A DNA stretch of 64,000 bases from an uncultured delta proteobacterium (GCA_963808235.1 CAWEEQ010000004.1:3232001-3296000), one strand, 5' to 3'. Counted from the stretch's first letter, positions 58,702 to 63,438 are shown. Notes: generated from the sequence alone by a model not told the origin. A program made the numbers and translations.

Positions 58702-59304
58702 CTAGTTCCTCTTTTTTTCCTTGTCGTTCGGATTTTGAGCTTGTGGAGCTTGCTGGGCGATTTCGCCCGGCCCTATTACGTCGAAGTCTTCCTTGGGTTC
58801 CATCAATGATTCGTCCAGATGCGCGGGTAATTCGTAGATCAGATCGATTGTCATGCGCGACTTATCCGCGTCGCTCGGATACAGCATGATGCTTCCCGGA
58901 CGCCCGTTGTAATGAAAGTCGCACGACCAGGTCTTGCGCGCCGACATGATGAGCGACGAGGTTATCCGAAAGTCATTCTTCTTGAGCGCGTCCTTATAAT
59001 AGCCGACCATCTGCGGGAAATCGCCCTGCGCGCTTAGCAATATCTCGCGCATCGCACCCTTGGGTTTGCGTACATGCTCGACGACCGCGCCCGGATACAT
59101 CGGCATCTGCTTGTACAGGTCCGGCGGCAGCACTTTGCTCGGTTCATCGGGCGCCGTCATCGAGGACTGCACGGGCGGAGGCGCGGTGATTGGCGACGGA
59201 GGAGTTTTGCAGGCGGCGAGTCCAGCGAACAAGGCTGCGGTGAGCAGTCCTTTACCCGGGAGCGACCGTGCAAGTCTTGAAATGAACAAGTCGGGCGGAT
59301 TCAC
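58702..59304 (-). CDS. hypothetical lipoprotein
   Basis: Lipobox LAAC, Pro-rich tether, MPMYPGA motif; divergent from exbB. GTG start inferred. Confidence 0.7.
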   Translation of the reverse strand: MNPPDLFISRLARSLPGKGLLTAALFAGLAACKTPPSPITAPPPVQSSMTAPDEPSKVLPPDLYKQMPMYPGAVVEHVRKPKGAMREILLSAQGDFPQMVGYYKDALKKNDFRITSSLIMSARKTWSCDFHYNGRPGSIMLYPSDADKSRMTIDLIYELPAHLDESLMEPKEDFDVIGPGEIAQQAPQAQNPNDKEKKRN

Positions 59305-59388
59305 CGTCTTATTAATTGAAAGAAGGCCGTTATTTTTCAAAACGTTAATCGACAAAAAAATAATGACCGCATCGCGGTCACGATCTGG

Positions 59389-59426
59389 CAAGTTCTGGAT
59401 AGACTTGCAAGTTCTGGATAGACTTG
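59389..59426. repeat. perfect 2 x 19-bp tandem repeat, each unit with inverted ends
   Basis: CAAGTTCTGGATAGACTTG twice (CAAGT-N9-ACTTG). Confidence 0.9.
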
Positions 59427-59880: not shown

Positions 59881-60522
59881 ATGCAAAGCAATTTTGGAAT
59901 TTTGGGAATGATCCAAGAGGGTTACTACGCTACGTACCCCCTGCTGTTCATTTCGGTCATCTGCCTCGCGATCATTTTCGAGCGCGTGTGGGCGCTATGG
60001 GGCGTCGGCCCGAAGACCGCGAAGCTGGCCGACTCGCTGGTGCCGCAACTCCGCCAGGGCAAGTTCAACGAGGCGTTGCAGGCAACCCAAGCGCGGGGCA
60101 CCGCTGCCGAGCGCATCTATCACACCCTGATCTCGGGATCGCAGACCATGGACCGCGACCATCTGCTCGAGCTCGACGACGAGCGTCGCTACCAGGAAGG
60201 GCTCGAGTTCAAGCGTTACATCTGGGTGCTGGCGACCGCCGGCGCGTCGGCGCCGTTCATCGGGCTGTTCGGCACCGTCGTCGGAATCCTGGTCGCATTC
60301 CAATCGATGGCGATCATGGGCACCGGCGGTTTCTCGGTCGTCGCGGCCGGTATTTCGGCGGCGCTGATCTCGACCGCGCTCGGACTTGCCGTCGCGATCG
60401 TCGCGGTCATATTCTACAACTACTTCTCGGTTAAGGTTGAGAACATCAACGCCATGCAGCACATCAACGATGATCGCCTGATCGACGCCGCGCTGCAGGG
60501 GAGACAGGCGCGTGGCAATTAG
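59881..60522 (+). CDS. MotA/TolQ/ExbB proton-channel protein
   Basis: IIFER, LATAGASAPFIGLFGTVVGI, AGISAALISTALGLAVAI..FYNYF. Confidence 0.93.
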   Translation: MQSNFGILGMIQEGYYATYPLLFISVICLAIIFERVWALWGVGPKTAKLADSLVPQLRQGKFNEALQATQARGTAAERIYHTLISGSQTMDRDHLLELDDERRYQEGLEFKRYIWVLATAGASAPFIGLFGTVVGILVAFQSMAIMGTGGFSVVAAGISAALISTALGLAVAIVAVIFYNYFSVKVENINAMQHINDDRLIDAALQGRQARGN

Positions 60523-60964
60523 CGGACCTCATACCGGCGGAGGCGGCGTCTTCGACAGCATTAACATCACGCCGCTCACCGACATCTTCCTGGTCCTCCT
60601 GATCATCTTCATGGTGACGACTTCCGTCACCATCGAGTCTGCGGCGCACGTCGACCTGCCCAACGCGACCAACACTGCGCCCGAGAACAAGGGCGTCATC
60701 GTCACCTACACGACCCAGCACGAGCTGTTCGTGAACTCCAAGGACGTGCCCGAGCGCGAACTGCGCTCCAGCCTGAGCGAGGCGCTGGGCAAAGTCGATG
60801 CGAAGATCGTCGTGTTCCAGGGCGATCGCAAAGTGCTGCTCGGCGACATGGTCCGGATTCTGAACATCGCCAAGGCCGCCGGCGCAACGCAAATAGCGAT
60901 CGCGGCCAAGCGGGCCACGGGTGCGCAGATGGCCAATTCCTCGGGTGCAGGTGGAGGACAATGA
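60512..60964 (+). CDS. ExbD/TolR protein 1
   Basis: INITPLTDIFLVLLIIFMVT (conserved Asp), VDLP, FQGD. Confidence 0.93.
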   Translation: MAISGPHTGGGGVFDSINITPLTDIFLVLLIIFMVTTSVTIESAAHVDLPNATNTAPENKGVIVTYTTQHELFVNSKDVPERELRSSLSEALGKVDAKIVVFQGDRKVLLGDMVRILNIAKAAGATQIAIAAKRATGAQMANSSGAGGGQ

Positions 60965-61019
60965 TCGGGTCGCGGTACGCTCGAGACCTGAAAGTCACCG
61001 CCCTTAGAGGTGTTTGCTC

Positions 61020-61478
61020 ATGGCAATGACTTCAAATCAAGGCGGCGGGGTTTTCTCCGACATCAACATCACCCCGTTGACCGATATTTTTCTCGTCCTG
61101 CTGATCATCTTCATGGTGACCACCGCAGTGACGATCGAATCCGCCGCGCACGTCGATCTGCCCAAGGCCGAGCAAGCGGCCCCGACCGACAAACCCAAGG
61201 GCATCATCGTGACTTACACCGCGGATCATCAGATCTACGTGAACGACAAGATCGTAACCGAACCGGAGCTGGTGCCCCAGTTGCACGCGGCGCTACAGAA
61301 TTCGACCGACAAGATCGTAGTATTCCAGGGTGACCCCAAGGTCATACTTGGAGACATGGTGCGCATCCTGGATCTCGCCAAGTCGGCGGGTGCGGAAGCG
61401 ATCGCAATCGCAGTGTCGTCACTTCCTCCCGGTGGCGGTGGCGCGCCGGCCGGTGGAGCGCCCGGCGGCGGAGTATAG
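61020..61478 (+). CDS. ExbD/TolR protein 2
   Basis: Same TM motif INITPLTDIFLVLLIIFMVT, VDLP, FQGD. Confidence 0.93.
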   Translation: MAMTSNQGGGVFSDINITPLTDIFLVLLIIFMVTTAVTIESAAHVDLPKAEQAAPTDKPKGIIVTYTADHQIYVNDKIVTEPELVPQLHAALQNSTDKIVVFQGDPKVILGDMVRILDLAKSAGAEAIAIAVSSLPPGGGGAPAGGAPGGGV

Positions 61479-61564
61479 GAGTTTGATTTTCGAACCAAAT
61501 GGAATGAACGAGGATCTCGGCTCGGTCGCGGCAATCGCGGCTTAGGCAGGGAGCGCGCGCAAAT

Positions 61565-62791
61565 ATGATCCCAGTAATTGTAGTTTTACTTGTCCTCTCG
61601 ACCTTCGTGGTCGCCTTCATCTTTTACCGCATAATCGGCAAGCGCGAGCGTTTAGCCGAGGCCAATCGCGACGACGACGAAGCTGATGCGACCCGCCTGC
61701 AATCGATGAAAGACGCGCTGGGCCTGCTGATTGGGCCCTTCCCGCTCTCAGTCGCTCTGCACGTTATCGCCCTCCTGTTCCTGATCATCACGGTCCACGA
61801 ACAGCGCGGACGCGAACTGATCATGGTGAACCTGGAAGCAGGCGGCGGCGGAGGCGGGGGCAACGAGATGCAGGATCTCGATATGCCTGAAGTGCCGATG
61901 CCCGACACGGCGCCGCAGCAGATGGAGCAGCCGACCGCGGTCGACACCTCGCAAGCGGTGGGCCTGGCCAATGATTACGTGCGCGCGGCCGGCGGCGGCG
62001 GAATCGGAATCGGGCGCGGCGGCGGCATGGGCTCGGGCTACGGACACGGAATCGGCTCAGGGTTCGGCGGCTTTATAGGCGAACTGCGGCGCAAGGGACT
62101 CGACGTGGTGCTGGTCATCGACGGGACCGGCTCGATGAACCTGATCATCGACGATGTGAAAGCCAAGATGGCGCAACTGGTCCAGTCGATCCATCGGCTG
62201 GTGCCGATCGCGCGCATCGGGATCATCGTGTTCGGTGGCAAGGGCGAGAAGATGAGAATCCAGCCGCTGACGCTGTCACCGCAGAAGCTTGGCGACTTTT
62301 TGAACAGCATCCAGGCGATGGGCGGCGGCGAATGGGAAGAGGATACCTACGGCGCGTGCGAGCAGGCGATGGAGCGGATGGACTGGAAGCCGTACGCCAA
62401 GAAGGTGGTGGTGCTGGTCGGCGACTCGCCACCGCACAAAGAGGACTTCGGTCCGCTGCTCGCAATGATCCGCAAGTTCAAGGACAACAACGGCACCTTC
62501 AACACGGTTGACGTAGCGGCGGAAGAGCATGAACGGTTCGAGCGCGAGTTCTGGCTGAAGGTGCATCGCGAAGAGCCGCCCAAGATCTCGCCGCTGCCGG
62601 AGTTCTACCGGCAGACCCAGGCGGCGTACAAAGTGCTCGCGAGCGCCGGTGGCGGCTCGATGAAATCGCTGACCAAGGACGCGAAAATCAACCAGCAGGT
62701 GCTGATCCTCGCCTTCGGCGAACAATGGCAATCGCAAGTCTCCGCCTTCGGCCGAGGCCTCGGCGGCGGCTCGGGTGGCGGCGGCGAGTAA
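61565..62791 (+). CDS. membrane-anchored TonB-like-linker VWA-domain protein
   Basis: Two hydrophobic helices (second LSVALHVIALLFL), Pro/Gly-rich spacer, LDVVLVIDGTGSM, GGGEWEE, VVVLVGDSPPH. Confidence 0.85.
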   Translation: MIPVIVVLLVLSTFVVAFIFYRIIGKRERLAEANRDDDEADATRLQSMKDALGLLIGPFPLSVALHVIALLFLIITVHEQRGRELIMVNLEAGGGGGGGNEMQDLDMPEVPMPDTAPQQMEQPTAVDTSQAVGLANDYVRAAGGGGIGIGRGGGMGSGYGHGIGSGFGGFIGELRRKGLDVVLVIDGTGSMNLIIDDVKAKMAQLVQSIHRLVPIARIGIIVFGGKGEKMRIQPLTLSPQKLGDFLNSIQAMGGGEWEEDTYGACEQAMERMDWKPYAKKVVVLVGDSPPHKEDFGPLLAMIRKFKDNNGTFNTVDVAAEEHERFEREFWLKVHREEPPKISPLPEFYRQTQAAYKVLASAGGGSMKSLTKDAKINQQVLILAFGEQWQSQVSAFGRGLGGGSGGGGE

Positions 62792-62844
62792 AAGTAAATA
62801 TATGGGACCGGCCCGTCGTCCAGTATGATCAGGGCCAGGACGCC

Positions 62845-63438
62845 ATGAAAAACTTCAGGATACTTAGCGCGGTCGCCGTTGCGGCCGCGCTTTTCTTTTC
62901 GCAAGGCGTAACCCATGCGCTTGCGATGGATCTGCGGCATGCACGCGCGCAGAAGGATCTCACGCCTGCGCTTCAGCAGTCGCTCGAGGACAAACTCTCC
63001 GACGTGGCCGAGCCTTACTTCAACGAACAGGACGAGGCGAAAACCAAGGGCGGGAAGTACCTCGACTTGCAGCAAAAGTTCGAATACCTGCCGACCTACG
63101 GACCGCGCGGGCAGCTGACGGTGAGCTGCAAGATGGGCGGCGTCGAGTATGACCTCTCGAAGAAAGACGCGAAGGGCGCCACCTCCAAGGGCCTCGCAAC
63201 CGGCGTGTTGAAATACCTGGTCTTCACGTACGCACTGGAAGGTGGAAAATGGGTCCAGGTCGCGAAGCCGAAGTGGGAATCGCAGGATCTCGGCGTCGCG
63301 GGCGCCAAGCAGATGAGAGAGAGCCTCGCACGCGGCGAACAGCGCAAAGCCGCGATGCAAAAATCGATGCAGACTCATCAGGCCGCGTCCGCAGCCGCCG
63401 CTGCCGCTCAGAAAGCCGCCGACAGATCGAGCCAGTAA
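62845..63438 (+). CDS. exported hypothetical protein
   Basis: Sec signal MKNFRILSAVAVAAALFFSQGVTHALA; Ala/Gln-rich helical tail. Confidence 0.8.
   Translation: MKNFRILSAVAVAAALFFSQGVTHALAMDLRHARAQKDLTPALQQSLEDKLSDVAEPYFNEQDEAKTKGGKYLDLQQKFEYLPTYGPRGQLTVSCKMGGVEYDLSKKDAKGATSKGLATGVLKYLVFTYALEGGKWVQVAKPKWESQDLGVAGAKQMRESLARGEQRKAAMQKSMQTHQAASAAAAAAQKAADRSSQ

Follow-up and report, generated by a model that had tools for sequence, protein, structure and literature searches.

A five-gene operon from an uncultured soil bacterium probably encodes a force-transducing machine of the cell envelope, in which an ExbBD-type motor acts on a transducer that ends in a VWA domain. The operon lies in a 64,000-nucleotide stretch of DNA (the window, G000:C4:3232001-3296000, of assembly GCA_963808235.1). 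Its genome, G000, comprises 4.59 Mb in 4 contigs, is 92.95% complete and belongs to the genus Candidatus Binatus of the family Binataceae, class Binatia and phylum Binatota. Open reading frame calling and translation gave five frames, all on the + strand, within window positions 59881-63438. They encode ExbB, ExbD1, ExbD2, a 408-residue VWA protein and an exported protein, and together with the Pfam assignments they bear out the co-oriented cluster described in an initial annotation made from the DNA.

The whole proposal, which we hold with moderate confidence, is that a VWA force transducer docks on the ExbBD motor and pulls an envelope partner. ExbB, ExbD1 and ExbD2, the latter two possibly as a heterodimer, would form an inner-membrane stator driven by the proton motive force. 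The 408-residue protein would dock on the stator via its second transmembrane (TM) helix, with S62 and H66 in an S-x3-H motif, in the manner of TonB and TolA. The periplasm would be spanned by a flexible linker of about 90 residues, and the VWA head would hold the envelope partner through a metal site resembling the metal ion-dependent adhesion site (MIDAS). The motor action would then pull on the partner held by the head.

Of the force transducers of ExbBD/TolQR-type motors, only TonB and TolA are, to our knowledge, understood in any detail. A third type of head, if true, would mean that proton-driven motors power further envelope processes, a question opened by Williams-Jones et al. (2025, Mol Biol Evol 42:msaf138, PMC12204202), who proposed the vWA force transducers from genomes. 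The design is conserved and already proposed computationally, and the window locus appears to be a further member. It would extend the class to Binatota, alongside canonical Ton and Tol systems. It is also a case of one motor probably serving both a TonB and a VWA transducer, and it names a concrete candidate partner family, that of the exported protein.

The C-terminal part of the 408-residue protein is a VWA domain rather than TonB_C, as had been annotated. The Pfam families VWA_2 (5.5e-11, residues 181-288), VWA (1.6e-6) and VWA_4 (1.5e-6) all match over their cut-offs and together span residues 180-319, and neither Pfam nor NCBIfam gave a TonB_C or TolA match at E<=0.1. AlphaFold2 models residues 167-400 confidently, with pLDDT of 80-94 and an alternating beta/alpha pattern. 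Among the best Foldseek matches in the PDB is BatB (3ibs, E 2.6e-9, TM-target 0.67); 4jdu, Rpn10, ITIH1 and integrin I domains are also listed, and the matches listed are VWA folds throughout.

Hydropathy places two TM segments at about residues 2-20 and 59-77, and AlphaFold2, run on a 16-sequence alignment, places helices at 2-36 and 58-92. The translation carries S-V-A-L-H at 62-66, D-G-T-G-S at 186-190 and G-D-S-P-P-H at 286-291, so the TM helix with its motif, the extra N-terminal helix and both head motifs of the initial annotation are all present. Residues 82-165 are unstructured, with pLDDT <50. This spacer had been called both Pro-rich and Gly-rich; with 27 G in 99 residues and the run GGGGIGIGRGGGMGSGYGHGIGSGFGG it is Gly-rich, and the Pro-rich part of the description falls away. 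Its length and sequence differ among the relatives aligned.

The first TM helix has no N-terminal charge and is followed by the positive GKRER, so the 27-residue loop between the helices is predicted to lie in the cytoplasm and the VWA domain in the periplasm. This placement agrees with the relatives. The homologues in other families have one helix, N-in, after an Arg/Lys-rich N-terminus, and in other relatives this helix is preceded by a cytoplasmic domain, either zf-HC2 or FHA. The extra N-terminal helix is kept in the genus orthologues (P0102 and P0048) and missing from 12 homologues of other families, and appears specific to this lineage.

The docking motif is well conserved. Alignment A1 comprises 16 sequences, namely the window protein, two genus orthologues, a paralogue and 12 homologues of other Binatia families. 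All of them have H66 and at least 90% have S62, the homologue at L017 having A-x3-H. The genus orthologues are 90-96% identical to the window protein, and the homologues of other Binatia families 33-44% over the VWA part. A profile of A1 found 16,104 representatives at E<=0.001, generic VWA proteins included, and 546 at E<=1e-30. Among distant representatives read by eye, S-x3-H occurs in 17/18 and the TM-helix His in 18/18.

We then used four aligned distant representatives to search other phyla, which yielded 80 loci from uncultured Gammaproteobacteria, Myxococcota and a few others; being relatives of these four, which came from the profile search, the loci are not a random sample. A script found S-x3-H in 74 of these 80, and the other 6 are Arg-rich wrong-frame translations that were not evaluated. 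Conservation of the motif in orthologues, on which the annotated design leans, is thus seen at each of these distances. The docking itself is suggested by the architecture and by the published models.

The head retains the first MIDAS loop, D186-G-T188-G-S190. Throughout A1 its D186 and S190 never vary, and at least 90% of the sequences have T188. Residues G253, G254, E259, P289 and P290 are invariant as well. Where the MIDAS Thr is expected, the window protein has GGGEWEE. HMMER aligns the family's GGG[DE]W over the GGT of ITIH4 and collagen VI, and hence an acidic residue stands at or next to the Thr position. Integrin beta I-domains use Glu at this position. Since the C-terminal domain is VWA, not TonB_C, the expected grip would be a metal-ion site, not the beta-strand pairing of a TonB box.

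The three upstream genes encode a stator. The 213-residue ExbB matches Pfam MotA_ExbB at 3.7e-26 and, in NCBIfam, scores 100.7 bits against TolQ and 76.6 bits against ExbB, both under the equivalog cut-offs. The Pfam ExbD family matches ExbD1 at 6.4e-23 and ExbD2 at 3.7e-25; for both, the closest NCBIfam model is TolR, far under the equivalog cut-offs. The exbD1 start overlaps the exbB end by 11 nt. The ExbD1 TM helix, ITPLTDIFLVLLIIFMV, retains its Asp and ExbD2 has the same TM Asp.

ExbD1 and ExbD2 are 63% identical over 140 columns. In a tree they are sisters inside a Binatia ExbD clade (support 100/98), which is itself sister to the TolR of the same genome (95/92), whereas the two ExbDs of the gammaproteobacterial clusters fall in two deep clades. 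Long branches affect other parts of this tree, not the ExbD1/ExbD2 node. Judged from this topology, the pair is a recent, independent and lineage-specific duplication. The annotated resemblance of the 1+2 stator to the myxobacterial AglR/AglQ/AglS therefore holds for the number of subunits, not for orthology.

The Myxococcus Agl-Glt gliding machinery has one TolQ-like and two TolR-like stators and a VWA adhesin, CglB. CglB is a lipoprotein of the outer membrane and so differs from the inner-membrane S-x3-H protein of the window. Unlike that machinery, the window stator reached its 1+2 composition by recent duplication. An AglRQS orthologue is ruled out here by the recent sisterhood of the two ExbDs.

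The linkage of the VWA gene to the motor genes persists across the class. All 12 genus loci have the order exbB-exbD1-exbD2-VWA-exported protein. Of 16 genomes of other Binatia genera, 12 gave a VWA homologue at E<=1e-49 and 4 gave none. At all 12 loci of other Binatia families, exbB and exbD are on the same strand as the VWA gene, and they directly adjoin it in 10; L014 has a TPR gene in between and L020 a gap of similar size. The gene order varies, being exbB-exbD-VWA or VWA-exbB-exbD. The counts for VWA homologues, the exported-protein family and the lipoprotein include one or both of the unpublished genomes G018 and G023, and locus L032 of G018 is part of the gene-order and sequence comparison; no conclusion depends on G018 or G023 alone.

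A TPR protein of 696-852 residues is part of the cluster in 6/6 other-family loci scanned with Pfam. In G000, an 837-residue TPR protein is encoded among unrelated metabolic genes at G000:C4:2715152-2717665 (L038:6152-8665, - strand). It is 23-29% identical to the TPR proteins of the other-family exbB-exbD-VWA clusters.

The linkage extends to the other phyla, where 60 of the 80 loci have ExbB and/or ExbD matches. Flanks of at least 2.5 kb on each side are available at 56 of the 80; exbB is accompanied by at least one exbD in 45 of these and by two in 37. On these gene maps, the VWA-exbB/exbD linkage is more than chance, which agrees with the linkage expected from the initial annotation.

The published transducers are tethered to the inner membrane by a helix with an SHLS motif and end in a vWA domain, which follows a linker (domain II, about 100 residues) that is disordered or rich in Pro (PMC12204202). 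In the first family, with its type example from Tichowtungia aerotolerans and with no function assigned in the accessible text, the vWA gene lies downstream of one tolQ-like and two tolR-like genes. A TPR gene often accompanies the transducers. AlphaFold 3 models of homologous systems put the transducer His on the motor, at the edge of the ExbB pentamer. The force transmission that we propose is likewise drawn from such models and from the architecture.

We assign the locus to this first family by architecture and gene order. As in that family, the window has an SHLS-type Ser/His helix, a disordered linker, a vWA head and the position after exbB-exbD-exbD. Unlike what the accessible text describes, the window protein has an extra N-terminal TM helix and a Gly-rich linker, and its two ExbDs are recent duplicates, not an old heterologous pair. 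The operon has no TPR gene and a family-specific exported protein follows instead, while canonical TonB and TolA coexist in the genome. The phyla listed in the text are Proteobacteria, Planctomycetes, Verrucomicrobia, Bacteroidetes and Rhodothermaeota, and Binatota is not named there. The second vWA family, with a trans-pore helix, tolQ only and an ExbD-like TM Asp, was rejected as a placement: neither TM helix of the window protein has an Asp, and two exbD genes are adjacent.

The cluster had been put forward as a candidate new machine, and this fails because the architecture is in print (PMC12204202). It is in print as a computational prediction, and the accessible text gives no experimentally characterized system with this architecture. 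No other description of the transducer class was found in open PMC papers or bioRxiv. Within the literature searched, we did not meet the recent ExbD duplication, a motor being the sole non-Tol stator, or a paralogue of the exported protein after tonB.

Two MotA_ExbB genes were found in the genome, one in the window and one in a complete TolQ-TolR-TolA-TolB-Pal-CpoB cluster elsewhere (L033). Two canonical TonB_C proteins, of 352 residues at L034 and 259 residues at L035, are also encoded elsewhere, without stator genes. There are two TonB-dependent receptors, one of them beside the L035 tonB. The absence of a TonB-dependent receptor, TolB and Pal from the window, as annotated, is correct: all those found in the genome lie outside C4:3232001-3296000.

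A third stator occurs in two complete relatives, G017 and G006. In G017 it belongs to a receptor-exbB-exbD-tonB operon (L127, G017:C1:1436000-1448000). The orthologous receptor of G000, 78% identical, adjoins tonB with no exbB or exbD between them (L035, G000:C4:666000-678000). The window operon is thus the only non-Tol stator found in G000, and since no other was found, its motor probably serves the two canonical TonBs too.

This sharing of one motor raises another reading, in which the VWA protein is a competitor or regulator at the TonB docking site of the single Ton motor and tunes TonB-dependent uptake. At least three S-x3-H proteins would meet on this motor: the VWA protein, the L034 TonB, which carries the motif as SIAAH, and probably the L035 TonB. 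However, a pure competitor needs neither a conserved folded VWA head nor the first MIDAS loop, and the class occurs in species without discernible TonB or TolA, according to the accessible text of PMC12204202. We regard this reading as very improbable.

Relatives with other N-termini bear on a signalling role. Paralogues in the genus replace the extra TM helix with an N-terminal zf-HC2 anti-sigma domain of the form H-x3-C-x2-C; in P0106 it scores 24.5 bits against a cut-off of 22.2 in Pfam. In three metagenome proteins of about 700 residues (P0176, P0181 and P0203), an N-terminal cytoplasmic FHA domain (39.7-55.5 bits, cut-off 20.7) precedes the S-x3-H helix, the linker and the VWA domain. These FHA fusions hint that some members of the class may signal across the membrane.

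The VWA head could accordingly sense a ligand in the window system too, with the motor-coupled helix relaying it via the motor or the extra TM helix instead of doing mechanical work. The fusion of the TM-linker-VWA module to cytoplasmic zf-HC2 or FHA domains speaks for this. Yet the window protein has no cytoplasmic domain, having just the 27-residue loop and the extra TM helix, and its operon has no regulator. Three loci of the zf-HC2 paralogues were scanned, and none showed a neighbouring sigma factor gene. Trans-envelope signalling seems unlikely here.

The nearest structural relatives suggest a less active role. The window operon could be a housekeeping Ton stator and the VWA protein a passive scaffold or adhesin of the BatA/BatB type, anchored in the inner membrane, with S-x3-H serving to pack the helix or to insert it in the membrane. 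The best structural matches of the VWA protein, BatB and an aerotolerance-related membrane protein of Bacteroides (PDB 3ibs and 4jdu), are themselves membrane-anchored bacterial VWA domains. Moreover, the motor must serve canonical TonBs anyway in this genome, and nearly identical genus paralogues sit away from exbBD.

Against such a scaffold, the exbB/exbD linkage persists class-wide with changing gene order and reaches other phyla, and the invariant His is at the position used by TonB and TolA. G017 has a separate exbB-exbD-tonB operon yet keeps a dedicated exbB-exbD-exbD-VWA operon. The curated NCBIfam BatB model, NF047506, gives the 408-residue protein 16.8 bits, far under its cut-off of 350. 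Unlike BatA/BatB, the operon is not flanked by MoxR or DUF58 genes, its direct flanks in the window being SDR, lipoprotein and amino-acid permease genes. We give a passive scaffold a low probability and prefer the motor-driven transducer.

Several observations nonetheless weigh against the motor-driven transducer. Its MIDAS is not canonical, the usual Thr being missing (GGG[DE]W), and the last Asp, D287 of GDSPPH, gives way to S, G or T in the other Binatia families, although most distant representatives keep it (GDAPPH). The operon has no TPR gene, the homologue being about 515 kb away. Neither exbB nor exbD is near the VWA gene in 11 of the 56 well-flanked loci of other phyla, and the genus paralogues away from exbBD are 86-91% identical to the window protein from residue 47 on. 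For the published vWA transducers, PMC12204202 states that no deletion phenotype is on record, and the proposed kinship to its type proteins is one of architecture.

The architecture and the published models suggest a target for the head no more closely than an envelope partner, and the exported protein is a candidate for it. It has 197 residues from the ATG before its signal peptide (62845) or 237 from an upstream ATG (62725). In the AlphaFold2 model (pLDDT 82.7), one helix lies against a sheet of four strands, and the VWA-linked copies add a C-terminal helix of about 45 residues. It has no Pfam or NCBIfam family and no Foldseek match at E<=0.001. A wide VIA structure search gave only cystatin/NTF2-like and coiled-coil rows at Z 6-7, which is background level, and the ESM Atlas gave unnamed clusters only (0.86). 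Complex prediction of VWA-protein residues 120-408 with the mature exported protein gave 0.00 in both runs and is uninformative either way.

A profile of the exported protein detected relatives in 10/14 further genomes of the taxonomic family to which the window belongs and in 0/106 genomes searched of other Binatia families. A genome typically encodes two such proteins, and the gene of the second, about 39% identical, is directly downstream of the canonical tonB in 9/9 loci (G000 and the 8 genus genomes examined).

This pairing suggests an extension of the proposal that we rate as quite unlikely. One Binataceae ExbB-ExbD1-ExbD2 motor would drive interchangeable heads, two TonB_C and one VWA, with small cystatin/NTF2-like proteins as transducer-specific adaptors or ligands. 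Each transducer gene would be paired with its own paralogue of a family-specific periplasmic protein. The window's exported protein would be held by the MIDAS-like site, or would hand the true target to the VWA head. Through the ExbD duplication the motor would gain a second, different periplasmic face, and different transducers could use different faces.

Positions 62866-62891 (+), 20 nt into the downstream gene and within its signal-peptide codons, contain an 11-bp GC-rich hairpin and, after it, TTTCTTTT. This element might partially terminate or attenuate transcription between the VWA gene and the downstream gene, or might simply be a by-product of Ala/Phe codons.

Compared with ExbB-ExbD-TonB, the window shares the stator genes, the ExbD TM Asp, the S-x3-H transducer with a flexible spacer and the position after exbD. 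The differences from TonB are the C-terminal VWA in place of TonB_C and the linker that is Gly-rich, not Pro-rich. Its ExbB and ExbDs resemble TolQ-TolR in scoring best against TolQ and TolR, respectively. Unlike TolQ-TolR-TolA-TolB-Pal, the locus has no TolB or Pal, and the Tol-Pal-CpoB genes of the genome are elsewhere. The features are collected in Table 1.

Table 1. Positions of the operon, of the parts of the VWA protein and of related genes. Plain positions count from the first nucleotide of the window; prefixed ones refer to the named locus or contig.
Feature	Position	Strand	Description
ExbB/TolQ-like stator subunit	59881..60522	+	213 aa, three TM segments, Pfam MotA_ExbB
ExbD1	60512..60964	+	150 aa, Pfam ExbD
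ExbD2	61014..61478	+	154 aa, Pfam ExbD
Putative TonB-like VWA transducer, whole gene	61565..62791	+	408 aa, Pfam VWA families, fold model
Extra N-terminal TM helix of the VWA protein, residues 2-24	61568..61636	+	Hydropathy 3.01
TM helix with S62-x3-H66, residues 52-77	61718..61795	+	TonB/TolA-type motor-docking signature
Disordered Gly-rich linker, predicted periplasmic, residues 78-166	61796..62062	+	AlphaFold2 pLDDT
VWA domain, predicted periplasmic, residues 167-400	62063..62764	+	AlphaFold2, Foldseek, Pfam
Exported protein	62845..63438	+	197 aa, signal peptide ending AxA; candidate partner or accessory
Putative lipoprotein, divergent	58702..59304	-	L-A-A-C lipobox; membership in the system uncertain
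Exported-protein paralogue after tonB	L034:5244-5768 = G000:C4 about 2450243-2450767	-	Outside the window
zf-HC2 paralogues, other Binatus genomes	L025:3797-5251, L026:7477-8931, L027:3662-5137		
zf-HC2 paralogues, other Binatus genomes	L028:5482-7086, L029:5911-7422, L030:3626-5080		

The upstream putative lipoprotein, whose open frame was called over 58702-59391 (-), has, like the exported protein, no Pfam or NCBIfam family. Matches to it occur in 24/24 genus genomes. Wherever its gene shares a contig with the VWA gene, the two are about 2.2-2.7 kb apart and the lipoprotein gene is on the side of exbB.

Short contigs from soil metatranscriptomes (three runs of three studies) lie on exbB, exbD1 and the VWA gene; most are 90-95% identical to the window, and most come from relatives. 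They give a weak hint of expression, since RNA libraries can hold DNA. None of them lies on 62844-63105 of the downstream gene and none spans exbD2 and the VWA gene, which is not evidence of absence. One contig of 241 nt is identical to the window over 61529-61769.

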